Positions 28,633 to 49,441 of a stretch of 64,000 nucleotides of DNA are shown piece after piece; within the stretch, counting starts at the first letter, position 1, and each line of letters starts with the position of its first letter. The notes beneath the pieces were generated by a model. That model was not told the DNA's origin and ran no database searches. It worked only from the letters and a program-made list of their open reading frames with translations. This stretch comes from a candidate division FCPU426 bacterium. Lineage in GTDB: Bacteria > Oederibacteriota > Muellerivitia > Muellerivitales > Muellerivitaceae. The position numbers and the translations under genes were made by a program. The stretch spans positions 32,001 through 96,000 of the forward strand of contig CAVTWJ010000010.1 in assembly GCA_963738405.1 (NCBI GenBank), given 5' to 3'.

Positions 28633-30873
28633 ATGCCTGAGACCCCCCGTGAAGTTAAGGTCAGTTACAGCAAAAAAACCGCCCTATGGATGACGGCGGG
28701 AATTGTCTTTTTCCTCTGCGTCTGTAATTTCTTTAAGATTCAGTTTTTCCAATCCCTTGAGAATAAAACTATTGATTTCCGTTTTGGCGTTCGGGGTACC
28801 CGCTTGCCGGAAGCCCCTATCCGCATCCTGGCTGTCGATGAAAAGAGCCTGCGGGAAGTGGGCCAATGGCCTTGGCCGCGGGCTATTCACGCTCAATTGG
28901 TGCGGCAGCTTAAGGATATGGGCGTCAAGTGCATCTTTTACGACGTTTTCTTCCCTGAACCCGAACGTACCCAAGAAAAGATGCTCAATCAGCTGGAAAC
29001 GGTTTTGAATTCGGCCATCCAGGGCAACAGCAAGACCGCCACTAAAATTAGAGAATCCATGCTTTCCGATATCAAACGGTTCCAGGAAACACAGAACGGG
29101 GATAAGGAATTCGGTCAAGCCATTCAGGATACCGGAAATGTCTTTTTGCCCATCGAACCCCTGATCAATGGCAAGGAGGGGCGCACTCCCAATGAGGAAT
29201 CCTTACATGTAACCGGGGCCCAACTTTTTGGAGGATTCACCAATAATTTTCTGACAAGCCAATCCTTGATCATTTCCATTCCCGACCTTCAGGAACATGT
29301 GGCCGACTCTGGGCATACCCGTTATTTTCCCGATCCTGACGGTATCTATCGCTATTACCCCACGGTCATGAATTACTCGGGTGTATTGATTCCCAATTTG
29401 TCCTTGCAGGTGGCCCGGGTTTTCCAGGGAATCAAGGATCCGGTCAAGGTTTACGATGGGGACCACGTGGCGGTTGGGAAAAGCAATATCCCGATATTGG
29501 ACTTGGGTTTCGCCCTGATTAACTTTTGCGGGCCACGGGGAACCTTTATGACTATCTCGGCCAGCGATGTTTTGAATGGCCGAGTTTCGCCCGATACTTT
29601 GAAAGGATCCATCGTTTTGATCGGGGCCACGGCTGATGGCCTTTACGATTTGCGTCCAACCCCCTATACCCGAGCCTCGCCGGGAGTCGAAATCAACGCC
29701 AACATCATTGAAAACGTACTGGACAACCATTTCTTGACCTTAGCGCCGGATTATTTGAAATACATCCTTGTTCTTTTCCTAGCCTTGATTATTTGGTACC
29801 TGGTTCCTCGCGTGACACCCACCCAGGGTTCCATATGGTTCGGGGCTTTGCTGGTAATTTATACCGTCCTGTCCTGCTTGGTGTTTAGTTATATGGGTTT
29901 GATCATTAATTTGACCTATCCCGTACTTGCTCTCATGCTCACATTCCTCGCCCTCACGACCTACAAGTTCCGCACCGAAGTGCGACACAGCCGTTACATG
30001 AAACAGATGTTCCAGAGCATGGTGACGCCTAAGGTTGTTGAGGAAATTTTGAAAATGCCGGCTGGTATCGAACTGGGCGGTGAAGAAAAAGAACTGACGG
30101 TCATGTTCTCGGACATCCGGGGGTTCACCACTTACTCAGAAAAGCACACTCCCCACGAGGTCGTGGAGGTTCTAAACGAGTATCTCACCCAGATGACCAA
30201 CATGATTTTCCAAACGGAGGGCACCCTCGACAAATACATCGGAGACGCCATCATGGCCTTCTGGGGAGCCCCGACCGGACAGCAGGATCACGCCTATCGC
30301 GCCTGCTCCACCGCCCTCGGGATGGTGGATCTTTTACACACAACCCTTCATCCCAAATGGGAAAAAGAGGGCAAGGAAAAACTGGAAATCGGTATTGGGG
30401 TCAACACTGGCCCCATCGTCGTGGGGTTCGTGGGTTCCCAGGCCATCAAGAATTACACCCTTATCGGGGACGCGGTGAACTTGGGGAGCCGCTTGGAGGG
30501 TACCACCAAGGAATACAAGGTAGAAATCATCATCGGCGAACAGACATTTGAGCACGTTAAGATGGACATGCTTTGCAGGGAATTGGACCTGATTCGGGTC
30601 AAGGGCAAGCTGCAGCCCATCCGTATTTACGAGGTCGTGGATCACCGGCTCAAGGCTGTCGGAGCCAAGGAGTTAAAGGTGAACACCTTCAACGAGGGGC
30701 TCAGCTATTACCGCCTCCAGCGCTGGGATGACGCCATCAAGCGGTTCAAGGTCTGCCTGGAACTGGACCCGCACGACGGGCCTTCCAAGATATTCATCGA
30801 CCGATGTCAGCACCTGAAAGAAGACCCTCCTAAGCCCGATTGGGACGGGGTTTTCATCATGAAGACGAAATAA
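28633..30873 (+). CDS. CHASE2-domain class III adenylate cyclase
   Basis: GQWPWPR, PGVEINAN (CHASE2), 3 TM helices, FSDIRGFT, DKYIGDAIMA, YTLIGDAVNLGSRLEG, C-terminal WDGVF tail. Confidence 0.95.
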   Translation: MPETPREVKVSYSKKTALWMTAGIVFFLCVCNFFKIQFFQSLENKTIDFRFGVRGTRLPEAPIRILAVDEKSLREVGQWPWPRAIHAQLVRQLKDMGVKCIFYDVFFPEPERTQEKMLNQLETVLNSAIQGNSKTATKIRESMLSDIKRFQETQNGDKEFGQAIQDTGNVFLPIEPLINGKEGRTPNEESLHVTGAQLFGGFTNNFLTSQSLIISIPDLQEHVADSGHTRYFPDPDGIYRYYPTVMNYSGVLIPNLSLQVARVFQGIKDPVKVYDGDHVAVGKSNIPILDLGFALINFCGPRGTFMTISASDVLNGRVSPDTLKGSIVLIGATADGLYDLRPTPYTRASPGVEINANIIENVLDNHFLTLAPDYLKYILVLFLALIIWYLVPRVTPTQGSIWFGALLVIYTVLSCLVFSYMGLIINLTYPVLALMLTFLALTTYKFRTEVRHSRYMKQMFQSMVTPKVVEEILKMPAGIELGGEEKELTVMFSDIRGFTTYSEKHTPHEVVEVLNEYLTQMTNMIFQTEGTLDKYIGDAIMAFWGAPTGQQDHAYRACSTALGMVDLLHTTLHPKWEKEGKEKLEIGIGVNTGPIVVGFVGSQAIKNYTLIGDAVNLGSRLEGTTKEYKVEIIIGEQTFEHVKMDMLCRELDLIRVKGKLQPIRIYEVVDHRLKAVGAKELKVNTFNEGLSYYRLQRWDDAIKRFKVCLELDPHDGPSKIFIDRCQHLKEDPPKPDWDGVFIMKTK

Positions 30874-31084
30874 AGCTTTTGAATTGAGGCTGTTTTTAAG
30901 TTTTTTCCCGCCTTTTGAGTTTTTACCCCCCAAAACCTGATTTTTTTCTAAAATTTAAAAGACGATTGAATTTGTGTAAATATTGATTTTATCTATCTTT
31001 TGGTCGTGATTCCCCGAATCCTTGTCATGTACAATGCCGCCTCAACAGACAAGCGGGCTTTTGCAATGGCCCCAGGGGAGCCTG

Positions 31085-34000
31085 ATGAAAGTTCGCCATT
31101 GGGCGCTTTTATCTTTTGGTATCGTTTTTATTTTCGCGGCCTTCATCGGCTGCAATAACCGCTCGGCCTCGCCGGTTGCTCCTACACGAAACGCCAACCT
31201 TAATGTAGCCGTTCCTAGAACCCAGGAACTCCAGGCCAGCCTTTTAAGCTCCACCAGCGACATCCTTCTTTACAAAGCTACCACCTCAGGTCAGGCCGTC
31301 ACAGGATCGGCGGGACCTTTCAATGACCAGACTGGTTCGGGCTCGATTAATTTTTCGGTGGATCTACCAAGTTCTGGGACTTGGCTTATGGCGGTGGAGC
31401 TTATTGCCGCTTCAAACCAACAGCCTTTGGCCTTAGGCGCAGCTCAGTTTGACGCTGGAAGCGTTTCGGGTGGTGTCACGCTCGACCTGGGGTCGGTATC
31501 CAGAAATTGTTATCAAACTGATACTTGGATGGATCCGCTTGGGTCTTCTTTTTCCTTCTTGACTGATACACTTTTTACTTCGCTAAACTCGGGCGATATT
31601 AATATCGTCCCATTCGGCGCCGGTTATCAGATTCAGGCGGTTGCCCCTGCTCGGATCGAATATCTTGGTAATGGGCCGCTGGTTAATTTTGCCTCAGCTC
31701 CCGCGACTGAAACAAACACCGCTTCTTCTGTTTCGAAGATGACCGCTGGGGCCGCAGTTTCGATTCTGCAGTCGGGGGACGTTTACTGCGTTCTCTTATC
31801 AGGCGGTGGACACGCATGGATGCAGATCAGCAACCCCGGCAATGCCACAACAGGACCTTCTTTTCGTTTTCGGGTCAACGCGACACTTCCTTATTACGCC
31901 TATTATCAAACTTCTGCTGATATATCGGGCGTGTGTCTGACACCCCTGAACACCCCCACTTCCACCGCCACCTTCTCGCCGACTCCAACGATCACCCCCA
32001 CGGTGACCCCAACCCCCAGCTATACCCAGACGCCCCTGCCGACATCGACGCCTACCTCTACGAACTCGCCGACTTTAACCTCTTCGCCGACCGACACATG
32101 GACTGTGACCCCCACGCCTTCCATCACCGACACTCCCTCTTCGACTCCCACGCCGACGATTACGCCTTCTCCCTCGCCAACTAATAGCCCCATACCAACT
32201 TCCACCCCGACGGAAACCCTTACTTCCACGGCGACCAACACGCCAACCGTTACCGGGACTTCGACTTCGACCGTTTCGCCGACCTTTACCCTGACCAACA
32301 CGCTCACCTTTTCCTCGACGCAAACCTCAACATCGACCGCCACCGTTACGGGAACCGCCACGCTTACCCAAACACTTACTTCCACCCCGACGGGGTTATT
32401 TACCTCGACGATGACAAGTACCCCGACGAATACACCCACCTATACAGCCACCCCAACGACAACTTCGACTTCTACCTTCACTCAGACCAACACTCTGACC
32501 TCAACGTCGACCTCCACCGCGACAAGCCAATTCACCTTCACGCAGACATCGACTCCGACAAACACTCTATCCGCAACAACCACCGACACCTTAACGAGCA
32601 CTTTGACAGCGACACCAACCGATACTTTGACGACCACAGCCACATTTACGCAAACTCAGACGCCTACTGCGACATTGACCAATACGGTAACGGCTATCGC
32701 GACCTCAACGTCCACTGCGACCCCGACGAACACCCTGACTGCGACGCCCACCGTTACATCGACGAACACAGCCACCGTTTCGCAGACTCAAACCGTTACG
32801 TCCACTTTAACCAATACGGCAACGGCTACTTCGACCTCAACGTCCACTGCGACCCCGACGAACACAGCCACATCCACTCCGACCCAAACACCTACTTCAA
32901 CGGCGACCGCTTCGGCGACAGATACCCCAACCTCCACACTCACAACGACTCCGACGGCCACCCCGACCTCAACATTAACCACAACTCCAACAAGCACGCC
33001 AACTTTCAGTTTTACGGCCACATCCACAACCAATGGCACCTCAACCCCAACTTTGACTCCTATTGCGGGAGTAATTGACATTACCAACAATATCGATGGC
33101 GCCCCGGTTCCTGGCATCACCACCGGTGGACAGGATAATTACAGCCAAACGGTCACCTTCTGGAATGGGACTTCGAGCTTATCCTCCAGCTATGACAACT
33201 ATTCCAGTAGCGGTGCCGCAACCGCCCTCTATGGCCAGGGCGCTCCTGACCAGGCCTACCAGTTCACGCTGGCTTCTCCTAAAAATCTCTTCGTCAACCT
33301 TTGCGGCGCGAACTACGACTCGGTCCTATACCTTCGGAAGACGCTGAATGACCCGAATTCGCTGGTCGCCATTAACGACGATTCCGATTTCTGCGCCACA
33401 ACCTCTTCCAGCCTCGTAACGGGAACCCTACCGGCGGGCACGTACTACCTGATCGTGGATGGTTTCGCGGCGGGCTACCATGGCTCTTACTCCTTAACCC
33501 TCTCCACCTTCGCTCCCCCCTGCCAGTTGACGCCTCTTTCTTCACCCGTTACCAGCAACCAGCAGGTCAATACGGCGGATACCAGCAATTTCACCAACCC
33601 GGTCGTTTTAGGCTCGGTTGGGGCCGGATCGGACCTGGTAGGGGCCGGCACGGTCAATTACTTCACCAATTTCGCCAATACCTGGGCCTTCACGCCTTCC
33701 ATGACCGGGGCCTACCAGATTTCGTTGGATTGTTTCGACGATGGAACGGGCAAGGCGAGGGTAGGTTATGACCTTCTTGAATCCGATGGAGAGGGCGGAG
33801 TTTCCTTTGTCGATGTCTCCCTCGACGGTGATCCGTTAGACTCGTTGATCGAAAATCTGACTGCGGGAAATACCTATTACATCGCCGTTTACGCCTGGAA
33901 TGAAGGCGCTCCTGACGCCGATTACCACCTGATCATCAAGGGTTTGGGCAGTACGGCCACGCCCACGATCACGCCCACCGCTTCTTCAACACCCACAGAG

Positions 34001-37000
34001 ACCATCACTCCTTCCGCTACCTCGATTCCGACCGCCCAGAGCCCAGTCACCCTCAATATTTCCGGCGGCGGAGCCACGGTCACGGGCAATACCATTGGCA
34101 TGGCGGACAGTTATAACCAGCCGGTGAGCCTCTGGAATAGTATCGGAGGCGTTACCTACGATTACGGCGCGGGAGCGCCGGACACTGCCTACGCTGTCAA
34201 CGTCACGAACCCGGAAAGCCTCTTCATCAACCTTTGCGGGGCACAGTTTGACTCTGTTGTTTATGTAAGGTTTGGTTCACCCACGGGTCCGACCGTCTCC
34301 GTGAACGACGATTCGGACTACTGCAACAGCCCCTCTTCCAGCCTGGTGACCGGAACCCTGGTGCCGGGGATCTACTACATTATCGTGGATGGATTCGGTC
34401 CCGGAAGCTATGGGCCCTTTACCCTGGCTGTTTCCACCTTTAACCCCGTTTGCGGCCTGCCCACCCAAACCCTGCCGACGCCGGTTGTGAACCCGCAATC
34501 CGGTGATAGCGCGGATGACGTCAATTTCACCAATCCGGTGGATCTGGGTGTGGCTTTAAGCGGGGGCGATGTGGTGGGGTCGGGCAACGTGAATTATTAC
34601 TTCAACCATGTGCAAACCTGGAGTTTCGCGGTATCGCAGTACGGTAACTATACGGTCTCCCTGGATTGTTTTGATGACGGAACGGGCAAGGCTAGGGCGG
34701 GCTTTGACCTGCTTCAAAACAATGAGGGTTCCATCTCCTTTTTGCAGGCTTCGAACGATAACGATCCCTTGGACCAGGTGACCTATTACCTTATCCCTGG
34801 AGTCACTTATTACGTCGCGGTTTACGCTTTCGGTGAGGGGGCTCCCAGCGCGGATTATCACCTCTTGGTCACGCCCCAGGGCGGCGCCCCGGTCATCCAG
34901 GATGTCAGTTCTATCATCGGAACCGGGAACGCAATTTCGGGCAGTACGGAAGGTGCAAACGACAACAATAACCAGCCCGATTCATCCGGAACTCCCTGGG
35001 GCCAATACGGGCCGGATGTGACCTACCAGTTCGTGCCCCCGCAGACGGGCGAGTATTTCATCAATATGTGTAATGTCAATTTCGACTCGGTTCTTTATTT
35101 ACGAACCAACCCGACCGATCCAGCCTCGGTTGTGGATTTGGATACCTTCGGGAATTATTGCGACAACGGGCAGGGCACCGCGATCGCCACGGGAGTCCTG
35201 AACCAGGGGGTCACCTATTACCTGATCGTGGATGGAAATGATGAAGCGGGGAACTATTCCTTCACCATTGCGCCTTTCACTCCCCAGTGCGTCCTGACGC
35301 CTGTTTCCACTCCCGTCACTTTCACGGGACCGGCCAATACCTCCTTCAACCCAGACTTGGCCAACGCGCGGGACTTAGGCGATTTGAGCGCCGCGGGCCA
35401 GGACGCGACGGGGGTAGGCAACGTCAATTACGAATACAACGGCACCAATACTTGGCAGTTTGAGGTCACGGTTCCCAACCAGGTCTTCAATCTTTCCACG
35501 GATTGCTTTGATGACGGAACTGGAAAGAATTTGACGGATGTGGGCATTTGGAGCAACAGCGATGGGCTTCAATTCATCGCGGGTCAGTCGCAATATTCCC
35601 CGATCAACCAAGCCTCCGTCACTTTATCGACGGGAACCTATTACATCACCGTTGAATCGGACAATGACGGGGAGGACGGCAATTACCGCCTGGTGGTCCA
35701 GAACGTCACGGGGTTAAACACTCCCACCGTCACCCAAACCCCGACCGTTACGCCGACGGCCACCCCCGCAGGCGTTCCCGACGTCAGTTACGCAATCGGG
35801 CAGGGAACCGTCATCTCAGGCAATACGGCGGGCGGGACGGACCATTACAACCAAAACCTCACCAACGGCTTTAACGGTGCGGTGGATTACGGCGCCGGCG
35901 CCCCCGATGTGGCTTATCAATTCGTGGCGCCTCAAACCGGCGAGTATGTCATCGACATGTGCAACGCGGGTTTCAGCGCGGTTCTTTACCTGCGGACCAG
36001 CCTTACCGATCCGGCTTCCATGACCGATTTAAGTAATCAGTCTGATTATTGTTATAACGTGGGTTCCGGTTCTGGATATTACGCGTCGATCACGACAAGC
36101 ACCCTGACCCAAGGTGTGACCTATTACCTGATCGTGGATGGTTATGGAAGCGGCGATTACGGGAATTACGGTTTTACCATCGCCCCATTTACACCTGTTT
36201 GCTATCTCAACACGGTTTCCACCCCGGTTACTTATACAGGCTTGCCGAATGATAACGACGGCTATGAGCAAATGACCGACTCGGACGCTTCTGCCGCCGT
36301 AAATCTGGGCACGGTGACCACCGACGCAGTTGGGGTGGGAACCCTGAACTGGGCGCTCAACGGCACGGAGGTCTGGCAGTTCACCGCATCCGTGAGCGGC
36401 AATTATGCCATTTCCACGGATTGTTTCGACGACGGCACGGGACAGGACTACGCCGACCTTTATCTTTGGACCTACCAAGACGGGCTGACCGAAACCAATT
36501 ATTCTTACAACTATCCGCTGAATCAAATGGTGGTCTATTTAAACGCAGGCCAGACCTATTACGCGGAAGTCCAACCCGATTACGACGGCCAGGATGGGAA
36601 TTACCGATTAGTCGTTCAAAATCTCACGGGTTTTAATACCCCGACGCCACTCGATACGCCCACCCCTATGCCTTCTCCCACGCCCACCCCCTCAAGCTTC
36701 CGGGTCATCCCGGCGAGTTACAGCGGATATACCGACAGCCAAGGCAATTATTGGAATGGAGGGGCCGACAGCGACATACCTGGCTATTCAGGTCCAGGTG
36801 GATTTTCGAATGACAATAACATCCCGATTTTTGGCACCAAAGACCCGACACTTTATGACGACTATTACGACAATGGACCGGCGGCTCAAAACTACGTTTT
36901 TAACGTGGCTCCGGGTACCTACCAAACCACCCTCAAATTCACGGATCTCAGCGGGACTGCGGTAGGTGCAAGGGAATTCAATGTCTTTATCAACGGGTCG

Positions 37001-40000: not shown

Positions 40001-43000
40001 GACCTGGACCAGTATTCCGAATACTGCAGTACCACTGGCTCCTCTATTGCGACGGGCACCCTGACGCAAGGAGTGACCTATTACCTGATCGTGGACGGCC
40101 TCAACAGCTATGATTATGGAACCTACAGCCTGTCCATCTCCCATTTCACGCCTCTGTGCACTTTAAGCCCCACTTCCACACCCGTCCTTTATACGGCGCC
40201 AGCGAATATTACCTATTATCCCGACTATGCCAACGCGGTTGATTTGGGAACGGTCTCGACGGGCGGGGACGCGGTGGGAACAGGCAACGCGAACTACAAC
40301 TTCAATTACACGAATACCTGGAAATTCACGGTTGGAACCAACGGCGGAACCTATGCCTTCTCTGCGGATTGTTTTGACGACGGTACGGGCAAAAACTACG
40401 AAGACATTACGGTTTATGACGGTAATCCCGAGGATTTGAACAGTCCTATTGCCCAATCTTATTACCAGACGCCCTTAAACCAACTGGAGATACAGAATCT
40501 CCCGGCGGGAACCTACTATATCGCCGTTCAATCCGATGATGACGGCCAGGACGGGAACTATCGCTTGGCGGTCCAAGGGTTGCAGGCATTAACCATCACG
40601 CCAACGCCGACCATTACGCCGTCGCCTACGGATAGTCCGACCGATTCTCCTACCGTCATTTCAACTGAAACTTTAACGGTCACACCTGCCAACTCAGTTA
40701 CGGTTTGGCGGGAAACGACGGGCTACCTCGCGGCTTCCTTGACCGATCACCTGGGTAATGTTTGGACACCGGATACGACAGTGGGTAATTACAGCCCATT
40801 AGGCGGCAGCACCTATCTAGGTGGAGTTGTATTTGGAACACCGGATTCCACCCTTTATCAAAACCCCCGTTTTGCCAGCCCCACTTTGACCTATTCCTTC
40901 CCGATTGAGCCAGGCTCATACCAGGTGACCCTTAAATTTGCCGAGGAAAACCCCACCTATTGGGCAGTGGGGGCGAGGGTGTTCAATGTGTCCGTTATCG
41001 GAAGTTCGACCCAGACTCTATCTAATCTTGACGTATTTGCTGAAGTGGGAGGCCAAGCACCCGATGACAAGGTCTTTGACAGCGTTTCTCCGGATGCGAG
41101 CGGGAACATCACGGTTCTATTGGGCGGTGGGACCAACTTCCCCATGATTTCCGCCATTCAAATCATTCCCCAGGGCTCTGCCGTTACGCCGACCCCGACG
41201 CCCCTATTAACCCCTTCCGCCAATTGGAGGATCATCGCCGGGGCCAGCCCCTACAGCCAACTATCAGGGACCAATCTAAAACTTCCCTATATTGATTCCC
41301 ATGGCAAGCCTTGGATGGGCGACGCTGGATTTAGCGGCGGCGAGGGGCTTGGCTCCGGCGCCTATTTTGCCTCAAGTGACTTAACCCTTTATTCATTCGA
41401 AAGGGTGGGTTATGGCGTTCCCTTCAGCTACACCTTCCCTGTTCCGACGGGACAGCAGTACCAGTTGGATCTGAAATTCATGGACTACTACCATAATGCC
41501 GATGAAAACGTGGTCGTGAACGGAGTCACGGTTCTATCGAATTTCCAACCGGGTAATGTTGGCGGCTACAGCTTCAACACCCCCATCGACCAGGTTTTCA
41601 ATAACATTTCACCCGTCGGTGGAAACATCCAAATCCAATTCTTCCCGGTATATCCCGACTATTACCCCAATTATCCGGTGGAGGTGAACGCCATCCAGAT
41701 TATTCCCCAGCCGGTTCTGATTTCGCCCACTGTAACGCCTACCTGGACGATCACGCCCAGCCCCACCAATACTCCCAATCCATCGGTAACAACCACCCCC
41801 ACCTCCACTGCTACCATTTCATCGGGGATACCCATGGTGCTTGTGGATGGGGCCCCCGTGAGTGGAACAACCGCCGGTGGAACGGATAGCTATAGCCAAC
41901 CTGCCAGCCTTTGGGACAGTTCCAACGGGGTCACCTATAACTATGGCGCGGGCGCTCCGGACTCGGTTTACCAGTTCCATTTGAACTCGGCCCAGAGCGT
42001 TTTCATTAATCTTTGCGGGGCGGCTTTTGATTCTGTGGTTTACGTTCGTACCAACCCCAATGATCCCTCCACCACCATGGCCTTGGACGATGATTCGGAA
42101 TTCTGCCACGGCACCTCTTCCAGTCTGGTGACGGGCACCCTTCAGCAGGGGACCTATTATGTGGTTGTGGATGGGTTTACGGCGGGTGATTTTGGAACCT
42201 ATTCCTTAAGCTTATCCAGCTTCAATCCAATCTGCACCCTAACGCCTATTTCCACACCAGTGGTCAACTGGCAAACCAATAATTCGGCCGACGATTCCTA
42301 TTTCTCAAATACTGTCAACTTGGGTTCGGTCACGAGCGGCCATGACCTGGTTGGGATGGGAACACTCAATTATTATCTAAACCACGTGAATACCTGGCAG
42401 TTCTCGGCTGGGACGGACGGCTCTAACTATACGATTTCGCTGGATTGCTTTGACGACGGAAATGGCAAGGCCCGGATGGGTTTTGACCTTTACCAGGCCG
42501 CTTACAATAGCTTCGACAGCATTTACTCTTACCAATTGATCGCATCTTCAAGCAACGGCGATCCCTTGGACCAGATCACCCAGAATCTCCCGGCCGGCAA
42601 TTATGTTGTTGCGGTTTATGCCATCGACGCGGAAGCCCCGAGCGGGGATTATCACTTGGTGGTCCAAGCCGGTGCGGCCCCCACGCCCCTGCCCACGGCT
42701 ACGGTCACTCCCACTCCCGTGGTGGTCAACCATTACCCCGACATCACCTCGTATATTGACAGCGGGAACCCCGTCACCGGCGACACGACTGGCCTGCCGG
42801 ACCACTACAACCAGGTTGTTATGGAAGCCTCTGAGGGCGGCGATGCGCATGCCGCTGGAAATACCAATGGCAGGCCAGTGACCTTTGGCGCGGGTTCACC
42901 GGATGTGGTTTACCAATTCACTCTCCACTCTGCGGAAAGCCTTCATATCAATGCCTGTCAAACCTATTACTTCAGCTCAGTTGTTTATATAAGGACGAAT

Positions 43001-45568
43001 CCGGATGACCCCAGCACCACGGTGGCTTTTGGAAATGATTACAACAACTGTGAGGAAGCGAATTTCGTAACCGGAACTCTTAAGCCGGGAACCTATTACT
43101 TGATACTGGATGGGGACGGATATTACGGTCAATATACCTTTTCGCTTTCAACCTTCCATCCCCTGTGCGCAGTCTCGCCTGTTCCTAATGTGACGCCCGT
43201 ACCGAATGTTACTCCTAGCGGCGACAGTACTTATTTCTCCAAACCCACCTATTTGGGAACGGTTTCCAGCGGTACGGGGGTCATTGGGCCTGGAACGCTT
43301 AATTACTACTTTAATCCAACCGAAACCTGGCATTTTAAGGCCGGGACCAACGGCGGAAACTACGCACTTTCCCTGGATTGTTACGATGATGGAACGAATC
43401 AGGTGGTGTTTGACTTTTCACTCTTTGACGCACTTCACAATCAGATTGGGCATTATCAAGGCGGTGGCGGCAGTTATCCCAACCAAGAATTCAGGACCCT
43501 GCCCGCGGGCGATTATTACGTGGCGGTCTCGGCTACGAATGAAAACTACCCCAGCGGAGACTATCACCTGATCATCCAGGGCGGCGCGGTCGCCACTCCG
43601 ACGGCAACTCCCACCCTGACGCCGACCCCCACCCCGACGCCTATCCCTGGAGGTCCCAAGGGGGCTTGGAGCGCGCCCGTAGGGTTTATCGCAGTGAACT
43701 CGGCTGGAACCACCGTTTACCTCTCCCACAATTTCGGGGTGGATAACCTTAATTTCGATAAATATGTGCGAGTTTACACATCCACCAGCGGTATCAATTA
43801 TTCCCAGTCCGCGTCATGGGGATACTTTGGCAGCACTTATGGCGGAACTTATAGTTCCTGGCAGGATCCCAATGGCCTTGCAGTCGATTCTTCTGGAAAC
43901 GTCCTTGTGGCAGACAATGACGTAATTCGTAAATACAATTCCAATGGTGTCGCGCTGGGTTCCGTGGGCAATGACGATGGTTATTACAATTACGGTGGAT
44001 ATTTCACCTTGGCGAGTGATGTGGCTTTGGACTCGTTTGGCAACATCTATGGTGCCCAGGACCGGACCAGCTACGGTACGGTGCAACTTTTCAATTCTTC
44101 GGGAATCTTTCAGGGAATTTTGGGCTCGTATCTGGCTTATGGACAGGTAGGGAATTTCGATTACCTGCCATCGGTGGCCGTGAACGCATCCGCCTCCTCT
44201 ACGATCGTTTACGAGGCGGCTTTGGGCGATTCTGTAATCAATGTTTACCAGGTAGTTCCGGGTTCTTCTTATAAAATCTTCAATTCTCTCGGCCAATGGG
44301 GGGCGGGAGCGGGTTCCTTTAGCGTCGGGTCCTTGGCTGTGGCTCCGGCAGGGAGCCCCTATGCCGGATTCCTTTACGTCTCAGACACCGCGAACAATCG
44401 GATGATGGAATTCGACCCTTACGGAAATTTCGTGGGCCAATGGGGCAGTTACGGAACCGCACCTGGAGAGTTCAACTACCCAGGTGGAGTTGCGGTGGAT
44501 GGCGCTGGCAATGTTTACGTGGCGGATGTTAATAACAACCGCTTCCAGAAATTCGCGCCACCTATACCTCAATCTATTATCCCGACACCGACTGGAACTC
44601 CGACAAATACTCCTACTGTCACCTCGACTCCTACCCCGTTTGGACTTCCAACAGCGACCACCACACCTTTGGTTTATAGTTCCGCGGTGTTTGAGAGCGG
44701 GCTTCCTTATCCGCAAGGAGTAGCGCTTGATTCCAGTTCGAATCTTTATGTCGTCAACGACCAGCCCAGTTCCGGGCAATATTACCTGAAAGTATTTTCG
44801 CAATTTGGATCATTGCTTAACTCTTGGCAGTCCTTTTCTTCCAGCTTCTTAGATTTCCCGGACGCAATCGCGGTTAATGGCGCGGGTACTTCCATTTTTG
44901 TGGGCGACAGTAGCGGAAGCAACGAGCTGTATCTTTTGAACAGCGGTGGAACCGTTGTGAATAGTACGGGGGGGTTCAGCTTTATCGGTGGTTTGGCTTT
45001 AGATGTCGCGGCTACCAATCTTTATGTAGCGGATGATTCGGCCCATAGCCTTAAACATATCAGCCTCAGCAATTCAACCACCGTAGCCTTTGGGACCTGG
45101 AACAATAGCCAGGGCTTGGGCTATATCCAGGCACCCATTGGAGTGGCGGTAGATAACAGCACCAACTGTAACGGCGGACCCTGTGTTTACTCGATCGATT
45201 ATGGAAACGAAAATGTTCAAAAATGGGACACCAGTGGAAACCCCATCACCTTTTGGGGTGGTCCGGACTTGAACTACAAGAACTCGAGCTCGGGAAATGG
45301 AATGTTTTACGCCCCCTCCGCCATCGCGGTGGATGCCAATACGAGCTGTAACGGAGTGCCCGGACCCTGTGTCTATGTCTCGGATAACGGCAACCCGAAT
45401 AATTACCATTGGATCGAGATATTCGATTCCAATGGCGGCTTCATACAACAAATCTCAACTAGTTATTATCCGCAGGGGTTGGTGGCACTGCCTAATGCGA
45501 CGGGTTTGCCCGGTGCGTTCTATGTGGCTGATTTTGGCGATGGAGCGATTTATAAATACACGCCTTGA
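31085..45568 (+). CDS. giant multidomain surface lipoprotein/adhesin (~4,827 aa)
   Basis: Uninterrupted 14.5-kb ORF; GGGGAG RBS before ATG 31085; lipobox-like FIGC; Thr/Pro stalk, PPC-like repeats, malectin-like domains, NHL repeats. Confidence 0.9.
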   Translation: MKVRHWALLSFGIVFIFAAFIGCNNRSASPVAPTRNANLNVAVPRTQELQASLLSSTSDILLYKATTSGQAVTGSAGPFNDQTGSGSINFSVDLPSSGTWLMAVELIAASNQQPLALGAAQFDAGSVSGGVTLDLGSVSRNCYQTDTWMDPLGSSFSFLTDTLFTSLNSGDINIVPFGAGYQIQAVAPARIEYLGNGPLVNFASAPATETNTASSVSKMTAGAAVSILQSGDVYCVLLSGGGHAWMQISNPGNATTGPSFRFRVNATLPYYAYYQTSADISGVCLTPLNTPTSTATFSPTPTITPTVTPTPSYTQTPLPTSTPTSTNSPTLTSSPTDTWTVTPTPSITDTPSSTPTPTITPSPSPTNSPIPTSTPTETLTSTATNTPTVTGTSTSTVSPTFTLTNTLTFSSTQTSTSTATVTGTATLTQTLTSTPTGLFTSTMTSTPTNTPTYTATPTTTSTSTFTQTNTLTSTSTSTATSQFTFTQTSTPTNTLSATTTDTLTSTLTATPTDTLTTTATFTQTQTPTATLTNTVTAIATSTSTATPTNTLTATPTVTSTNTATVSQTQTVTSTLTNTATATSTSTSTATPTNTATSTPTQTPTSTATASATDTPTSTLTTTPTATPTSTLTTTPTSTPTFSFTATSTTNGTSTPTLTPIAGVIDITNNIDGAPVPGITTGGQDNYSQTVTFWNGTSSLSSSYDNYSSSGAATALYGQGAPDQAYQFTLASPKNLFVNLCGANYDSVLYLRKTLNDPNSLVAINDDSDFCATTSSSLVTGTLPAGTYYLIVDGFAAGYHGSYSLTLSTFAPPCQLTPLSSPVTSNQQVNTADTSNFTNPVVLGSVGAGSDLVGAGTVNYFTNFANTWAFTPSMTGAYQISLDCFDDGTGKARVGYDLLESDGEGGVSFVDVSLDGDPLDSLIENLTAGNTYYIAVYAWNEGAPDADYHLIIKGLGSTATPTITPTASSTPTETITPSATSIPTAQSPVTLNISGGGATVTGNTIGMADSYNQPVSLWNSIGGVTYDYGAGAPDTAYAVNVTNPESLFINLCGAQFDSVVYVRFGSPTGPTVSVNDDSDYCNSPSSSLVTGTLVPGIYYIIVDGFGPGSYGPFTLAVSTFNPVCGLPTQTLPTPVVNPQSGDSADDVNFTNPVDLGVALSGGDVVGSGNVNYYFNHVQTWSFAVSQYGNYTVSLDCFDDGTGKARAGFDLLQNNEGSISFLQASNDNDPLDQVTYYLIPGVTYYVAVYAFGEGAPSADYHLLVTPQGGAPVIQDVSSIIGTGNAISGSTEGANDNNNQPDSSGTPWGQYGPDVTYQFVPPQTGEYFINMCNVNFDSVLYLRTNPTDPASVVDLDTFGNYCDNGQGTAIATGVLNQGVTYYLIVDGNDEAGNYSFTIAPFTPQCVLTPVSTPVTFTGPANTSFNPDLANARDLGDLSAAGQDATGVGNVNYEYNGTNTWQFEVTVPNQVFNLSTDCFDDGTGKNLTDVGIWSNSDGLQFIAGQSQYSPINQASVTLSTGTYYITVESDNDGEDGNYRLVVQNVTGLNTPTVTQTPTVTPTATPAGVPDVSYAIGQGTVISGNTAGGTDHYNQNLTNGFNGAVDYGAGAPDVAYQFVAPQTGEYVIDMCNAGFSAVLYLRTSLTDPASMTDLSNQSDYCYNVGSGSGYYASITTSTLTQGVTYYLIVDGYGSGDYGNYGFTIAPFTPVCYLNTVSTPVTYTGLPNDNDGYEQMTDSDASAAVNLGTVTTDAVGVGTLNWALNGTEVWQFTASVSGNYAISTDCFDDGTGQDYADLYLWTYQDGLTETNYSYNYPLNQMVVYLNAGQTYYAEVQPDYDGQDGNYRLVVQNLTGFNTPTPLDTPTPMPSPTPTPSSFRVIPASYSGYTDSQGNYWNGGADSDIPGYSGPGGFSNDNNIPIFGTKDPTLYDDYYDNGPAAQNYVFNVAPGTYQTTLKFTDLSGTAVGAREFNVFINGSKVISNLDIYSEVGGNAADDKVFNNVIPVFNPSALAYQIQVQVGPANSGAPVIGAIQILPQSQTIATPTPTPTRGPSSTWRVIAGGASPYMTLPYTDSHGKSWIGDTDYQGGIFQASTNPGSISGTNDQILYQNTRMGNMINDTYYQPFSYSFPVPQGNYQVTLKFAETQYTYVGGRVFNVSINGNQAVTNLDVYSEVGENAADDKIVNNVTPDGTGHIKISFGPTSSSSNSNQVMVSAIQIVPEAGGFFPTATLTQTQTPTPTITPSPTPTSTPSGPAALDISGGGVTLTGQTTLGLPDIYNEPATAWLGASGYANYNYGVGAPDKLYTFTVGSGQAGQFFNINICDANFDSVLALHSGSPAGPTVALNDDSDFCGGTSSSLVTGPLAAGTYYLIVDGFQAGDAGAYTLKISTFTTTCSLSPTSTPVVSNQTSGVTVDDTTFTNPVTLTTPLTSGNDLTGLGVVNNYLNHVNTWMFTQASSGSCTISLDCFDNGTALGNSRVGFDVYDAYDDLIGSSADGDPLDQLVLDLNPGNYYVAVYAWDYGAPNANYRLVIQDGPIATATPTPTVTPTLTLNTTFTSTATITSTLMATPIPSFSPTPGVPADITSAINGAPVAGDTTGLEDDYSQPVSYWNGTDTSTQYLGAGAPDIAYQFSIDAGHAGESLFINICGASFDSVLYLRSGSPTGPLVAVDDDSEYCGASSNNGLSSSFVTGPLSAGTYYLIVDGYQSGDYGQFSLNLSTYNPPCSLNPTSTPIPNAEPSQDDNGFSQATNLGTVSIGTDTVGSGALGYFTNHVDTWHFHAGTDGGNYTLSLDCFDDGNNKARFGFDLYRLIKTNSYNSVPLSLVASSTDGDPLDQLVETLPAGDYYVAVYANDENAPSGNYHLVVQGGPVASPTPTITFTPTYTETPGGVIQDISSIISSGVTITGDTTNDVNNYTQAVTQYDGSSPYVFNTGLGPDAMYQFVPPSTGEYFINLCNASFDSVIYLRTNPTDSSSTIDLDQYSEYCSTTGSSIATGTLTQGVTYYLIVDGLNSYDYGTYSLSISHFTPLCTLSPTSTPVLYTAPANITYYPDYANAVDLGTVSTGGDAVGTGNANYNFNYTNTWKFTVGTNGGTYAFSADCFDDGTGKNYEDITVYDGNPEDLNSPIAQSYYQTPLNQLEIQNLPAGTYYIAVQSDDDGQDGNYRLAVQGLQALTITPTPTITPSPTDSPTDSPTVISTETLTVTPANSVTVWRETTGYLAASLTDHLGNVWTPDTTVGNYSPLGGSTYLGGVVFGTPDSTLYQNPRFASPTLTYSFPIEPGSYQVTLKFAEENPTYWAVGARVFNVSVIGSSTQTLSNLDVFAEVGGQAPDDKVFDSVSPDASGNITVLLGGGTNFPMISAIQIIPQGSAVTPTPTPLLTPSANWRIIAGASPYSQLSGTNLKLPYIDSHGKPWMGDAGFSGGEGLGSGAYFASSDLTLYSFERVGYGVPFSYTFPVPTGQQYQLDLKFMDYYHNADENVVVNGVTVLSNFQPGNVGGYSFNTPIDQVFNNISPVGGNIQIQFFPVYPDYYPNYPVEVNAIQIIPQPVLISPTVTPTWTITPSPTNTPNPSVTTTPTSTATISSGIPMVLVDGAPVSGTTAGGTDSYSQPASLWDSSNGVTYNYGAGAPDSVYQFHLNSAQSVFINLCGAAFDSVVYVRTNPNDPSTTMALDDDSEFCHGTSSSLVTGTLQQGTYYVVVDGFTAGDFGTYSLSLSSFNPICTLTPISTPVVNWQTNNSADDSYFSNTVNLGSVTSGHDLVGMGTLNYYLNHVNTWQFSAGTDGSNYTISLDCFDDGNGKARMGFDLYQAAYNSFDSIYSYQLIASSSNGDPLDQITQNLPAGNYVVAVYAIDAEAPSGDYHLVVQAGAAPTPLPTATVTPTPVVVNHYPDITSYIDSGNPVTGDTTGLPDHYNQVVMEASEGGDAHAAGNTNGRPVTFGAGSPDVVYQFTLHSAESLHINACQTYYFSSVVYIRTNPDDPSTTVAFGNDYNNCEEANFVTGTLKPGTYYLILDGDGYYGQYTFSLSTFHPLCAVSPVPNVTPVPNVTPSGDSTYFSKPTYLGTVSSGTGVIGPGTLNYYFNPTETWHFKAGTNGGNYALSLDCYDDGTNQVVFDFSLFDALHNQIGHYQGGGGSYPNQEFRTLPAGDYYVAVSATNENYPSGDYHLIIQGGAVATPTATPTLTPTPTPTPIPGGPKGAWSAPVGFIAVNSAGTTVYLSHNFGVDNLNFDKYVRVYTSTSGINYSQSASWGYFGSTYGGTYSSWQDPNGLAVDSSGNVLVADNDVIRKYNSNGVALGSVGNDDGYYNYGGYFTLASDVALDSFGNIYGAQDRTSYGTVQLFNSSGIFQGILGSYLAYGQVGNFDYLPSVAVNASASSTIVYEAALGDSVINVYQVVPGSSYKIFNSLGQWGAGAGSFSVGSLAVAPAGSPYAGFLYVSDTANNRMMEFDPYGNFVGQWGSYGTAPGEFNYPGGVAVDGAGNVYVADVNNNRFQKFAPPIPQSIIPTPTGTPTNTPTVTSTPTPFGLPTATTTPLVYSSAVFESGLPYPQGVALDSSSNLYVVNDQPSSGQYYLKVFSQFGSLLNSWQSFSSSFLDFPDAIAVNGAGTSIFVGDSSGSNELYLLNSGGTVVNSTGGFSFIGGLALDVAATNLYVADDSAHSLKHISLSNSTTVAFGTWNNSQGLGYIQAPIGVAVDNSTNCNGGPCVYSIDYGNENVQKWDTSGNPITFWGGPDLNYKNSSSGNGMFYAPSAIAVDANTSCNGVPGPCVYVSDNGNPNNYHWIEIFDSNGGFIQQISTSYYPQGLVALPNATGLPGAFYVADFGDGAIYKYTP
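31940..33065 (+). repeat. Thr/Pro/Ser-rich low-complexity stalk (~375 aa)
   Basis: Continuous (TxT)n sequence; near-identical nucleotide blocks at 32678-32733 and 32810-32865. Confidence 0.9.
33070..43585 (+). repeat. nine ~280-290 aa bipartite repeats interleaved with two malectin-like pairs
   Basis: Each unit carries variants of APD..Y.F, FINLC...DSVLYLR, GTYYLIVDG and DC(F/Y)D(D/N)G; malectin-like pairs at ~36697-37735 and ~40697-41712 (Y.VTLKFAE...G.RVFNV). Confidence 0.88.
43660..45565 (+). repeat. NHL-repeat beta-propeller region (two blocks)
   Basis: FNYPGGVAVDGAGNVYVADVNNNRFQKF and related repeats. Confidence 0.85.
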
Positions 45569-45735
45569 AATATAGGGGTGTTATTCAATCGTTTGAGTTG
45601 GACTAGGGCTTTAAATGAGGGGTTTCTAGGTTCAAAAGACCGCTTTTTATTAAAGGAAACCCTTTTCATTGCCGGTTTTTTCTTTAAAATACGCCCCAAG
45701 TTGCAGTCGGGGCTTAATCCCTGAAAGGGGCCGTC

Positions 45736-46533
45736 ATGAATAGAATTTTGATTTTGACAATACTGATTCTGGTGCCGGTCGGACGACTTTGGGCCGTAAC
45801 GGAGGCCATCTTTACCTCTGTTACTGGTAAGATCGAGATCAGGGGCCACGCCGGCCACAAGCTCCGGATTGCCCAAAAAGACACTACCGTAGTTGAAGGC
45901 GAACGTATTGTCGCCGGCGCGGACGGTCAAGCGACCCTGCAAACCTTTGATGGGTCCCAATTGACAATCAGTCCCAATACCGATTTCTGGTTGGATAAAC
46001 TCCAACAACCTGATCCCAATAATAAGATTATTCAATTCAAAATGATGCTGGGCCAGCTCTTCGCCAAGGTCACCAAGCTGGTATCGGCCAAGTCCTCATT
46101 CGAAATCAACGCCGGGGGCGTCATCTGCGGCGTTCGGGGAACTCAATACCAGGTCAAATTTGATCCCACCACCAACACCGTTTATTTGGGAGTTGTGGAG
46201 GGAACTGTTTTCACCACCTCAAACGGTCAAACGACCGATTGGGGCGCCGGAAGCAGTGCGGTTTTCCACAACGGAACCCCTTTAGGTGGTGGCAACAATG
46301 GAATACCCGGCGGCAATAATGGAAATAAAGGTGATAACGGAAACAATGGTCAAGGAAATGGCCAGGGGGATAATGGTGACAACGGTTCCCTTGGCTCTCT
46401 CCAAGACCTAAACGATCAATTCGGCGGAAACAATAACTCTAACGGCAACACGACTCTTACCGATCCGTCGGTGGAGGGTTCCATAAGGATCAATATCACC
46501 GCCAATATTCCTACCCAGGAAAATACGAATTGA
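45736..46533 (+). CDS. FecR-domain periplasmic protein with Gly/Asn-rich tail
   Basis: Signal peptide; L.TFDGSQL.ISPNT, GVICGVRGTQY, V.EGTV FecR pattern. Confidence 0.85.
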   Translation: MNRILILTILILVPVGRLWAVTEAIFTSVTGKIEIRGHAGHKLRIAQKDTTVVEGERIVAGADGQATLQTFDGSQLTISPNTDFWLDKLQQPDPNNKIIQFKMMLGQLFAKVTKLVSAKSSFEINAGGVICGVRGTQYQVKFDPTTNTVYLGVVEGTVFTTSNGQTTDWGAGSSAVFHNGTPLGGGNNGIPGGNNGNKGDNGNNGQGNGQGDNGDNGSLGSLQDLNDQFGGNNNSNGNTTLTDPSVEGSIRINITANIPTQENTN

Positions 46534-46547
46534 AGGAGAAAAACATC

Positions 46548-47705
46548 ATGAAAAGTTTCTTTGCGGGACTTTCCCTCTTTTTACTCGTCCTTCCTGTCCA
46601 AGCCGGCCAATTCAGTATCGGAGCCATTTACGATGGTTGGAACAGCAACTATCTAACCCCATTGACCGGATTAAACACCAATCAGGGTTCTGAATTTTGG
46701 GTCCCCATGGCTTTAAATCTGAATTTGGAAAAGGGATTTCAGGTTTATGGGCAGGGGTCTTTCGCGACTGCCTCTTACATTTTTCCGCCCGATCAGTCGG
46801 GGGCTAATGAGACGCTGAATTTGACAAATCTGACGGACTCAGTTCTCGGAACCGAGATTCAGTTCAAAAGTTTCGGCTATTCTTCGCTCCTTAATGTCAG
46901 TATCAATCTGCCGACGGGCGACCCAACCTGGGAAACGAAACAGATTGTGGCTATTATTCCCACTGAGTTCATGGATTATCGCTACCGTGGTCGTGGGTTC
47001 GGTTTTAACGGCCTTTATGGGATCAGTTTCCCCATGGGAAAAAGTTCCATCGGTGCAGGTGTTGGTTACCTGCATTCGGGTTCCTTCGATGCGACCGGCG
47101 ATTCGACCGCACCCCTGCAATTGGGTGATACGATGTTTTTGGCTTTCAACTTTGTTCAGCCGGGAACCGGCGGGTACAAGGAAATCGCCCGGCTTTCGGG
47201 TTATTACTCCTTTACGACTCAAATCGCCGGGGTTAACGAGTTTCAGCTTGGGACCAATGTGAATGCCTCTTATAGTTGGATTAATCCCCATGCCCTATCC
47301 GTTGATTTGGGAGCTCAGTTTTTCCTTCCCTCTCAAAGATTGAGTACAGATAACGTTTTGACCACCGAATCCAATAATTACTACGCCCCGCGCTTTTACG
47401 TGGCTCCCAGTTATTCATTTGGAGATATCAACTTGTCCGCACAAGTGAAATATATCCTGCCCAATGATTATCCAGATACCTTTTCCGGTTCTGGCGTGAA
47501 TCCAATGTATTTCGGCGGAGGTTGGCTTTTTGGAATCGGCCCTTCCTGGAAAGCTGCCCTGGATGACAAGTCGAGCCTCAATTTCTATGGTGCCTACGAC
47601 TACATCGTTCAAAATAACGCCAATATTGATTCCACCGGAACCACCTTGGTTAACGCCACATACAATTATTGGATCATCGGCACGAACTACCAAATTAATC
47701 TCTAA
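46548..47705 (+). CDS. putative outer-membrane beta-barrel protein
   Basis: Signal peptide (VQA); amphipathic aromatic-rich strands; NLPTG; terminal strand WIIGTNYQINL. Confidence 0.65.
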   Translation: MKSFFAGLSLFLLVLPVQAGQFSIGAIYDGWNSNYLTPLTGLNTNQGSEFWVPMALNLNLEKGFQVYGQGSFATASYIFPPDQSGANETLNLTNLTDSVLGTEIQFKSFGYSSLLNVSINLPTGDPTWETKQIVAIIPTEFMDYRYRGRGFGFNGLYGISFPMGKSSIGAGVGYLHSGSFDATGDSTAPLQLGDTMFLAFNFVQPGTGGYKEIARLSGYYSFTTQIAGVNEFQLGTNVNASYSWINPHALSVDLGAQFFLPSQRLSTDNVLTTESNNYYAPRFYVAPSYSFGDINLSAQVKYILPNDYPDTFSGSGVNPMYFGGGWLFGIGPSWKAALDDKSSLNFYGAYDYIVQNNANIDSTGTTLVNATYNYWIIGTNYQINL

Positions 47706-47755
47706 TTCGTTATTCAGTCCCCGGGGAGCGGGTCTTAACCAAAGGAGACGGCTAA

Positions 47756-48775
47756 ATGAAAATCGCATCGAATAAATTTTTTATCGCCTCGAGCCTGTTT
47801 TCAGTCCTGATTATGGTGATATGGGGCTGTAATGGTTCTCGTCCCTTGGCTCCCGCCCAAAATGTCAATTTGGGCATTTCTTTGGCGCCCTCCAAGGATC
47901 TTCAAGCCAGCTTGCTGGGAACAACTTCGAACACCCTTCTCTGGAACTATCAAATCAACGGCCAGTCTGGGGAGCATGGCCAGGCGGGTCCCTTTTCCTC
48001 CAATGTCGGCGCCGGAAACGTTAATTTCTCAGTGAATCTGCCTGCGGGCGGTAAAAAGATATTCTCCATCCAATTAAACGACGCCAATACTGGGCAGGAC
48101 CTGGCGGTTGGTTCTGCTCTGATTGATCTGACGAACCCAACAGCGAATATGTCGGTAACCATCGCCCTGGGATCGGTGGTTCGGGCCTGTTACACATTGA
48201 GCAATGCAGGGCTTTATAACTACTATGACTTGATTGACCATTTCATTCAGTACTATCCCCAGCAATCAGACCTGGAAGTGTATTACGGGGATACCAACTA
48301 CTCATTGTGGGACGCAAACTATAACGCCACGATCGCATACTTGGGCAATGGGAATCTGGTCGATTACGACTATGTTCCCTCGGATGATGTTTTTTCGTAT
48401 TATTCTATTGAAACCAAATATGAGGTCCTGAATCCTTCCAGCGCGAAACCCACTCCTGTGCCGACTTACGGTGGCGGTTCCGCTCGAAAAAGCACCAAAG
48501 CCAGCACGGGACAAAATTTAGATCTAGAAACTGGGGATGTCTATTGCATTAAGTTGACCAATCTTCCCGGGGATTATGCCTGGGTTCAGGTAACAGATTC
48601 CGGCAACCTCAATAATTCTGTCGGTCCCAGCTTTTGTTTCCGCATCAGCACCGATCCTTTCTATTCTTACTACCAGACCAGCGCGGACCTTCTTCAAAAT
48701 TGCTCATGGGGCGGTACTAGCGGCAGCGGCAGCGGCGGTACCAGTGGGGGTGGCGGAAGCGGCGGCGGCGGTTAA
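47756..48775 (+). CDS. lipoprotein paralogous to the N-terminal domain of the giant protein
   Basis: Lipobox-like IWGC; shared LQASLL, AGPF, NFSV.LP, LGSV.R.CY, YLGNG.LV, GDVYC, GPSF.FR, YYQTSAD; Gly-rich tail. Confidence 0.85.
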   Translation: MKIASNKFFIASSLFSVLIMVIWGCNGSRPLAPAQNVNLGISLAPSKDLQASLLGTTSNTLLWNYQINGQSGEHGQAGPFSSNVGAGNVNFSVNLPAGGKKIFSIQLNDANTGQDLAVGSALIDLTNPTANMSVTIALGSVVRACYTLSNAGLYNYYDLIDHFIQYYPQQSDLEVYYGDTNYSLWDANYNATIAYLGNGNLVDYDYVPSDDVFSYYSIETKYEVLNPSSAKPTPVPTYGGGSARKSTKASTGQNLDLETGDVYCIKLTNLPGDYAWVQVTDSGNLNNSVGPSFCFRISTDPFYSYYQTSADLLQNCSWGGTSGSGSGGTSGGGGSGGGG

Positions 48776-49369: not shown

Positions 49370-49441
49370 ATTTTTTCTTCAAGTATGAGACCCCCTGATG
49401 GAAAATGCTCTGAAGCAATACATGATCAAGGCGGAATTGCC

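Follow-up and report, generated by a model that had tools for sequence, protein, structure and literature searches.

The linkage of CHASE2 sensors with FecR-domain proteins is already known from NsrA-CyaK, from Campylobacterota and from Burkholderia. In Sinorhizobium meliloti the outer-membrane barrel NsrA can drive the CHASE2 cyclase CyaK (PMC7529298, PMC13001267), a Campylobacterota cluster holds a CHASE2 cyclase, a phosphodiesterase, a FecR-domain outer-membrane protein and a tetratricopeptide repeat (TPR) protein (PMC9239204), and Burkholderia BiofilmReg and PA4035-PA4036 combine a LysM-FecR protein with a CHASE2 histidine kinase (PMC5192318). The locus considered here lies in a window of 64,000 nucleotides, the whole stretch analysed (C10:32001-96000, contig CAVTWJ010000010.1 of assembly GCA_963738405.1), of a candidate division FCPU426 bacterium (G000, the source genome; other G-numbers denote genomes and L-numbers loci that were compared), and encodes a CHASE2 adenylate cyclase, a giant lipoprotein, a FecR-like protein, an outer-membrane beta-barrel and a small lipoprotein. 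An earlier note, made from the sequence alone, had called this layout undescribed, but it is less novel than that in view of the published CHASE2-FecR clusters (PMC9239204, PMC5192318) and of the functional precedent of NsrA-CyaK.

Like NsrA with CyaK, CyaD1, CyaD2 and Clr, the locus brings together an outer-membrane barrel and an inner-membrane CHASE2 class III adenylate cyclase, the barrel being linked in 24 of 30 genomes. Unlike NsrA, which contains a FecR-like part as a FecR/TPR fusion within one receptor chain, it has FecR as a separate secreted protein with a tail, and its barrel, a stand-alone protein of 385 amino acids, measures about 365 amino acids with 16 strands, where the barrel portion of NsrA covers residues 600-1200; further, a lipoprotein with swappable cargo has been added and the cassette has multiplied. 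By analogy, the locus looks like a rebuilt or split NsrA-CyaK relay that differs in receptor architecture. It also resembles Slam, or type XI secretion, in having a dedicated barrel encoded beside lipoproteins that may here be surface-located. Slam proteins carry DUF560 and TPR plus a 14-strand barrel, and their cargo is marked by a C-terminal small barrel; the present barrel, unlike Slam, has no DUF560 match and 16 strands, and the signature shared by its cargo is N-terminal.

Other systems share single features. As in the Campylobacterota cluster, a CHASE2 cyclase is grouped with a FecR-domain envelope protein, but neither a phosphodiesterase nor a separate TPR protein was among the window neighbours scanned, and the accessible part of PMC9239204 describes no lipoprotein cargo system. 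In BiofilmReg, too, the gene for a secreted FecR-domain protein neighbours that for a CHASE2 sensor; the differences are a kinase output, LysM in place of a barrel-linked tail and the absence of a barrel. With FecA-FecR-FecI and FoxR (PMC12036975) the locus shares a FecR domain, whose Gly-Thr pair may correspond to their self-cleavage site; unlike them it has no membrane-anchored anti-sigma part, sigma factor or TonB-dependent receptor, and its predicted output is cyclic AMP (cAMP). With the retention module of type I secretion system adhesins (MpIBP RIN 5IX9, LapA; PMC5550230) it shares a homologous periplasmic beta domain and a linker that could span the pore, yet in those adhesins plug and adhesin form one chain through TolC, whereas head, barrel and cargo are here three Sec-type proteins with signal peptides or lipoboxes. 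In the literature searched, which took in few subscription papers, no paper dealt with this cassette, and none brought together a surface lipoprotein, beta-barrel and CHASE2 or connected FecR with retention modules. Nor did the searches turn up this family of barrels, an anchor domain whose cargo can be exchanged, or a FecR tether made of two parts.

The conserved triad and its components

Three components are conserved together: a FecR-like protein, a barrel of 16 strands and a lipoprotein with a common anchor domain. When 99 genomes from the phylum were queried with a single sequence, 33 had the barrel, comprising all 31 of its own family and both of one other family, and it is usually multi-copy in family genomes. 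The family loci fetched cover most, not all, barrel matches and hold 79 barrel open reading frames (ORFs), including the pieces of two frameshifted copies; where neighbours are visible, the gene upstream of the barrel encodes FecR in 72 of 77 cases, and the one downstream an anchor-domain lipoprotein in 56 of 72. At the 30 cyclase loci, FecR and barrel are directly next to the cyclase in 17, a large lipoprotein lies in between in 7, no triad is present in 3 and the contig ends in 3, so that the synteny which the earlier note had proposed as a check was recovered at 24 of the 30. The tie of triad to cyclase stood in part: it holds at those 24 loci, but not for two further FecR-barrel-lipoprotein triads of G000 without a cyclase (one on C2, where the lipoprotein has 3953 aa and its cargo is unrelated, and one on C20, where it has 350 aa), nor for the 3 of 30 cyclases that have no triad adjacent. 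The neighbour of the cyclase may be either of two barrel subtypes, the second occurring there in G050 and G054.

The FecR-like protein (FecR domain match of the 45736-46533 ORF at E 2.5e-11) consists of a signal peptide followed by a head, a linker and a tail of about 45 conserved residues, with no cytoplasmic anti-sigma part and no transmembrane anchor. As had been claimed, neither an extracytoplasmic function sigma factor nor a TonB-dependent receptor was found among the neighbours of its gene that were scanned; the seven TonB receptor matches in G000 all lie away from this locus. GxRGT occurs in 65 of 66 barrel-adjacent FecR proteins, with CGVRGT invariant in the head. A Gly-Thr pair is where E. 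coli FecR cleaves itself (PMC12036975), and the motif suggests that the pair in the head may be an equivalent site. Against the PDB the head profile has one significant match, MpIBP RIN 5IX9 (E 6.8e-6 over 64 profile positions), which is a periplasmic plug too large for the TolC pore (PMC5550230); its match to the retention-module family NF033682 (E 8.8e-5) falls under the cut-off. The linker is of low complexity and spans 8-534 residues, mostly 14-40, in 62 proteins; in L064, L067, L069 and L176 it is enlarged by about 100-530 residues. Among the eight FecR-like proteins of G000 the tail profile matches just the three that are barrel-adjacent, one of them by construction, and a C12 protein has a partial tail motif below passing. 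Natural FecR-barrel fusions exist (P0059, L065, L176).

The barrel has no match in Pfam or NCBIfam, DUF560 included. The ORF that the earlier note had taken for a barrel does model as one, with a predicted local distance difference test (pLDDT) of 88, a predicted template modelling score of 0.82 and 16 long strands counted from DSSP. Its best fold matches are PelB (Z 19.6, root-mean-square deviation (rmsd) 3.6, 260 aligned), BcsC (18.3) and CdiB (18.2), a likeness of the model that shows shared fold, not function; porins also occur, and Slam and NsrA-type barrels are absent among the matches listed, which does not imply their exclusion. TPR-barrel fusions occur in relatives. When barrel, FecR and anchor domain were folded together with the anchor as the scored partner, the prediction reached 0.44 (runs 0.73, 0.00 and 0.44) against 0.05 for the best control, in which the barrel was replaced; agreement between the runs is at least 0% of contacts, with partner pLDDT at least 69. 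Of the solved pairs 116 of 157 reach this mark, as do 2 of 215 that are mismatched, and because just 18 of the 157 solved pairs, plus both mismatches, do so at 0.60 or under, the model lends a barrel-anchor complex weak support.

The giant ORF spans 31022-45568 and opens at a TTG (31022), although a start at ATG 31085, giving 4827 aa, is likelier; behind a lipobox (Cys at nt 31151) and an N-domain of 265 aa follow a Thr/Pro stalk, nine PPC-like repeat pairs, four malectin domains and two NHL regions. Its N-domain is indeed shared with the small lipoprotein, as had been proposed (33% identity over 318 columns, E 7e-45). Leaving out two split fragments, complete anchor-domain proteins measure between 265 and 4848 aa, some having no cargo and others as much as about 4,500 aa of it, and a lipobox-like Cys stands at the start of the domain in all 68 tested by a loose pattern; the four such proteins of G000 all sit in its three barrel loci. 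Behind the anchor are found no cargo, leucine-rich repeats (LRRs), NHL propellers or the PPC-repeat/malectin/NHL array. The slot of the giant is filled in three same-genus genomes by LRR proteins of 1425-1589 aa whose anchors are 70-74% identical to its own, and in G072 and G073 by shorter versions of the A/B repeats, while malectin is restricted to this giant among 37 large proteins tested. Comparison thus shows the giant to be exchangeable cargo on an anchor domain. Its role as a fixed or obligatory part of the system, as first envisaged, is rejected: a large anchor-domain lipoprotein occupies the slot between cyclase and FecR in only 7 of 30 loci, cargo varies within a genus, and relatives fill the slot with other cargo or with no large lipoprotein.

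The anchor domain of the small lipoprotein models at pLDDT 84. Its first subdomain is pilotin-like (ExsB, Z 9.8, rmsd 2.3, 94 aligned; 5wec, Z 9.1) and its second HmuY-like (3h8t, Z 9.8, rmsd 3.2, 118 aligned), all at middling Z; type V pilins also match (Mfa2 5nfi, Z 8.1, rmsd 2.9, 102 aligned; 3r4r, Z 8.5), the second subdomain fitting HmuY instead. Foldseek with the anchor model returned nothing under E 0.001, the domain has no sequence match in the PDB, and an Atlas search scored an uninformative 0.76.

Several observations concern lipoproteins elsewhere. The second giant of G000 (C2:162289-174150, 3953 aa) has only the anchor in common with that of the window, and its probable orthologues in G053 and G067 have no Pfam match at E 1e-6. 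Several contigs of G000 encode many large secreted proteins with Thr/Pro linkers and a common C-terminal sorting-like end, absent from the anchor-domain giants, which recalls type IX secretion cargo. In L187 (G061:C47), L188 and L190, anchor-domain lipoproteins of 610-3646 aa have no adjacent barrel; two tail-less FecR genes lie near that of L187, which suggests that a barrel encoded elsewhere is used.

The cyclase carries CHASE2 at residues 26-386 (E 1.7e-57) and a class III cyclase domain at 486-661, with a weak C-terminal TPR under the Pfam cut-off; its topology comprises an N-terminal transmembrane segment, periplasmic CHASE2, more transmembrane segments and the catalytic domain. CHASE2 has no sequence match in the PDB. 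The Lys of DKYIGD and the Thr of NYTLIGD, read earlier as marks of an ATP-type enzyme, align with the identical residues of Pseudomonas aeruginosa CyaB (3r5g), so that ATP is likely its substrate. It is the sole CHASE2 protein found in G000, and 30 of 31 family genomes have one full-length CHASE2 cyclase each. Nine matches to cyclic nucleotide-binding domains in G000 show only the presence of receptors, not a Crp-type output. Triads away from the CHASE2 locus were also inspected upstream: 6 of the 13 regions contain, at most a few kb off, a cyclase-domain gene that is not of the CHASE2 type (L191:1546-3114, L192:970-2541, L193:951-2339, L194:2526-4337, L195:3680-5194, L201:6308-7726). Among them are G053, G065 and G066, in which no triad adjoins the CHASE2 cyclase; G000 has about nine cyclase genes, and such proximity could be chance.

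Separate histories within the FecR-like protein

The FecR protein has two parts with separate histories: its tail co-diverges with barrel and anchor, and its head does not. The comparison took in 49 of the 64 FecR-barrel pairs, namely every pair that is followed by an anchor domain and whose genome encodes a cyclase. Their pairwise distances give Spearman correlations of 0.81 for tail and barrel, 0.81 for tail and anchor and 0.87 for barrel and anchor, the last in support of the earlier suggestion that the shared lipoprotein domain may dock on the barrel, to which the modelled complex adds weak support; for head and barrel they are 0.20, and for head and CHASE2 0.32. The contrast is not due to length, because all six head windows of equal length, 55 columns each, stay at 0.10-0.18 against the barrel. 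Within-genome paralogues (42 pairs) give 0.78 for tail and barrel and -0.28 for head and barrel. Much of the contrast stems from the existence of two subtypes of barrel: for the main one by itself, the correlation is 0.65 between tail and barrel and 0.46 between head and barrel. Head identity is 45% within the main subtype and 44% across subtypes, while barrel identity goes from 48% to 24%.

Layout of the locus and its surroundings

All five genes, placed and oriented as the earlier note had them, exist as ORFs of one orientation between 28633 and 48775 (Table 1). About 210 nt separate cyclase and giant, 167 nt giant and FecR gene, and 12 nt the small lipoprotein and marC; promoter and terminator scans of the locus gave signals near shuffle level.

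Table 1. Features of the CHASE2 cyclase locus, in window positions
Feature	Position	Strand	Remarks
CHASE2 adenylate cyclase, 746 aa	28633..30873	+	Domain search, CyaB alignment
Giant lipoprotein, 4827 aa from ATG 31085	31085..45568	+	Exchangeable cargo carrier
Anchor domain of giant, N-terminal, shared	31151..31945	+	Lipobox Cys; pilotin/type-V-pilin-like beta-sandwich and HmuY-like subdomain (fold modelled on the small paralogue)
Thr/Pro/Ser-rich stalk of giant, ORF aa ~300-687	31919..33082	+	
Nine pairs of PPC/DVUA0089-like repeats (A+B) of giant, four malectin domains in between	33086..43612	+	
Two C-terminal NHL-type propeller regions of giant	43694..45565	+	
Secreted FecR-like protein, putative relay/tether, 265 aa	45736..46533	+	Signal peptide, head, Gly/Asn linker, conserved tail
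FecR head	45793..46275	+	Invariant CGVRGT; Gly-Thr pair at ~nt 46138-46143; N-terminal part homologous to MpIBP RIN (5IX9)
FecR C-terminal tail	46393..46524	+	Co-diverges with barrel and anchor domain
Outer-membrane beta-barrel, 385 aa, ATG start	46548..47705	+	16 long strands in predicted model; unannotated family
Small lipoprotein, 339 aa	47756..48775	+	Anchor domain without cargo

Close behind the cassette lie marC and an NAD kinase gene (48788-50350), and ORFs of their sizes follow the cassette in most family loci, marking the place ahead of them as an orthologous site at which cassettes get inserted, duplicated or lost. The gene at 28072-28467 on the reverse strand, divergent from the cyclase, has no Pfam match; its product is small and secreted and shows Cys/His motifs. 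At 25326-26308 an ABC-type ATPase gene is split across two frames near 25800 (ORFs 25326-25817 and 25814-26308), by a frameshift or an assembly error. Cassette genes are also split or frameshifted in L032, L034, L182 and L183, affecting the cyclase in G048, the giant in G051 and two barrels in G048.

Distant barrels and the possible function of the cassette

A profile search with the barrel gave 228 representatives at E 0.001 or better, among them a distant group homologous to the family barrel (hhalign 99.4%) whose named members belong to Nitrospinota, Nitrospirota and Desulfatiglandaceae. The survey covered one subcluster, which holds 25 of the 68 sequences aligned; it yielded 99 confirmed stretches, of which the 80 best were used. 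A secreted CsgG-like protein lies at most two genes upstream of the distant barrel in 70 of 78, a redoxin-TPR-CsgG protein occurs in 42 of 80 loci and a Ser/Thr kinase in 28 of 80, and in 24 of 80 the barrel adjoins a lipobox protein whose cargo varies between Ig, fn3, PKD and propeller domains. Because distant barrels keep cargo lipoproteins but have CsgG-like and kinase neighbours, barrel and cargo lipoprotein look portable, with relay and output exchanged.

These loci (L071-L150, for example L098:5667-15569, in Desulfobacterota and Nitrospirota) join the distant barrel to a secreted CsgG-like protein with its own conserved tail and to cargo lipoproteins, often with a convergent cluster of a small CsgG/FlgO lipoprotein, redoxin-TPR-CsgG protein, Ser/Thr kinase, trypsin-like protein, PP2C and FHA; by analogy, the whole may be a TagQRST-like input to the kinase. 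Type VI secretion genes are near the distant barrel in L098 and L127. Homology of the FecR tail with the tail of the CsgG-like partners was considered and rejected (hhalign probability 0.3). The first anchor subdomain compared with Desulfobacterota lipoprotein N-termini is a lead only (hhalign probability 5.6, E 0.007), the best single match of the anchor hidden Markov model on these lipoproteins has E 0.76, and 17 of the top 40 of 2,865 ORFs are barrel-adjacent against about 1.5 expected, an excess to which kinship and composition may contribute. In three short metagenome loci of another barrel subcluster no FecR was seen by eye.

The reading preferred here, that the barrel displays cargo lipoproteins, the FecR tail tethers to the barrel and the head signals to CHASE2, is about evenly balanced between right and wrong. 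The locus would join a CHASE2 adenylate cyclase to one of several copies of an outer-envelope cassette, in which the 16-strand barrel, as the weak complex model hints, would bind the anchor domain and keep the lipoprotein at the cell surface. Anything behind the anchor is, as the comparison shows, interchangeable cargo, here a 4.8k-aa PPC-repeat/malectin/NHL fibre that is likely glycan- or surface-binding. From its co-divergence, the FecR tail would engage barrel and anchor, and the head, which a flexible linker would leave in the periplasm much as the plug is in type I secretion adhesins, would contact CHASE2. Binding or load on the cargo could then shift the head on CHASE2 and change cAMP output, and several paralogous cassettes may feed the single cyclase.

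A number of results weigh against this. With family-built profiles and flanks of up to 8 kb, FecR and CHASE2 were found in none of the 80 distant loci, and the barrel family therefore does not need a FecR-CHASE2 relay. Within the family, the cyclase has no adjacent triad in 3 of 30 genomes, cyclase, FecR and barrel occur without an adjacent lipoprotein in three genomes, and the majority of triads are not beside a cyclase. The correlation of head with CHASE2 is modest, 0.32 overall and 0.19 within the main subtype, and shared ancestry could yield it; over 16 triads linked to a cyclase, the head correlates almost as closely with NAD kinase, taken as a control (0.66), as with CHASE2 (0.70). Recombination of heads between subtypes, hinted at by a FastTree drawing, was considered, but the approximately unbiased test fails to reject one clade (p 0.33), so that swapping of heads between cassettes lacks support. 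Further, the genomes are kin, and the counts therefore describe one family, not independent trials.

A somewhat unlikely alternative would confine the triad to display or secretion, with the barrel translocating or holding the anchor-domain lipoproteins, the FecR-like protein as a plug or chaperone comparable to the adhesin retention module and the cyclase as a regulatory neighbour without contact. The cyclase-free triads agree with it, as do the homology of the head to a structural plug, the distant barrels that retain cargo lipoproteins without FecR or CHASE2, and the export barrels PelB, BcsC and CdiB as closest folds, a likeness of fold only. It accounts less well for triads of either subtype beside the cyclase in 24 of 30 genomes, for the recurrence of CHASE2-FecR linkage in unrelated phyla (PMC9239204, PMC5192318), and for a head that stays constant across subtypes while all else diverges, which implies a shared outside partner.

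A TonB-independent mechanosensor goes further than the preferred relay: the barrel family, common to several phyla, would display swappable adhesins by their anchor domain, a self-cleaved FecR tether would run from the barrel to the single CHASE2 cyclase, and a pull on any of these adhesins would displace or split the head and alter cAMP, with the head as a general CHASE2 ligand and the Desulfobacterota barrel rewired to a CsgG-TPR relay beside a Ser/Thr kinase; taken as a whole, this is unlikely. Less likely again, and argued from analogy with RcsF, is a monitor of assembly or envelope integrity, in which uncaptured or released FecR would switch the cyclase and cargo binding would be irrelevant. 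Many cassettes do carry an anchor without cargo (about 300-370 aa, the small lipoprotein of this locus included), and the 17 direct cyclase loci usually have no large lipoprotein in the adjacent triad; however, large cargo is placed in the cyclase locus across several genera (G000, G047-G049, G051, G072, G073), and NsrA-CyaK answers to an outside protein signal (PMC7529298). That the barrel is a small-molecule channel, the lipoproteins being periplasmic pilotin-like assembly factors and FecR binding an imported ligand, is very improbable, for although the first anchor subdomain is pilotin-like (ExsB, 5wec), porins are among the fold matches of the barrel and PF13557 is in 16% of the members of its nearest Atlas cluster, Z values near 10 are middling, and the cargo, which reaches about 4,500 aa and includes malectin, LRR, NHL and Thr/Pro stalks, resembles that of surface proteins and would fit poorly in the periplasm.

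As a sensor domain CHASE2 is widespread, yet in 2016 its input still counted as unknown (PMC5192318), and for the NsrA-CyaK relay the accessible parts of PMC7529298 and PMC13001267 give no physical mechanism. The cassette suggests a testable partner for CHASE2 in the FecR head. Further, the relay would here be split into small parts with separable histories, a constant head on the one side and tail, barrel and anchor changing together on the other, and specific binding questions therefore arise for head and CHASE2, tail and barrel, and anchor and barrel, with matched against mismatched subtypes. More broadly, this unannotated barrel family may be a route for the surface display of lipoproteins, with natural cargo that ranges from none to about 4,500 aa.

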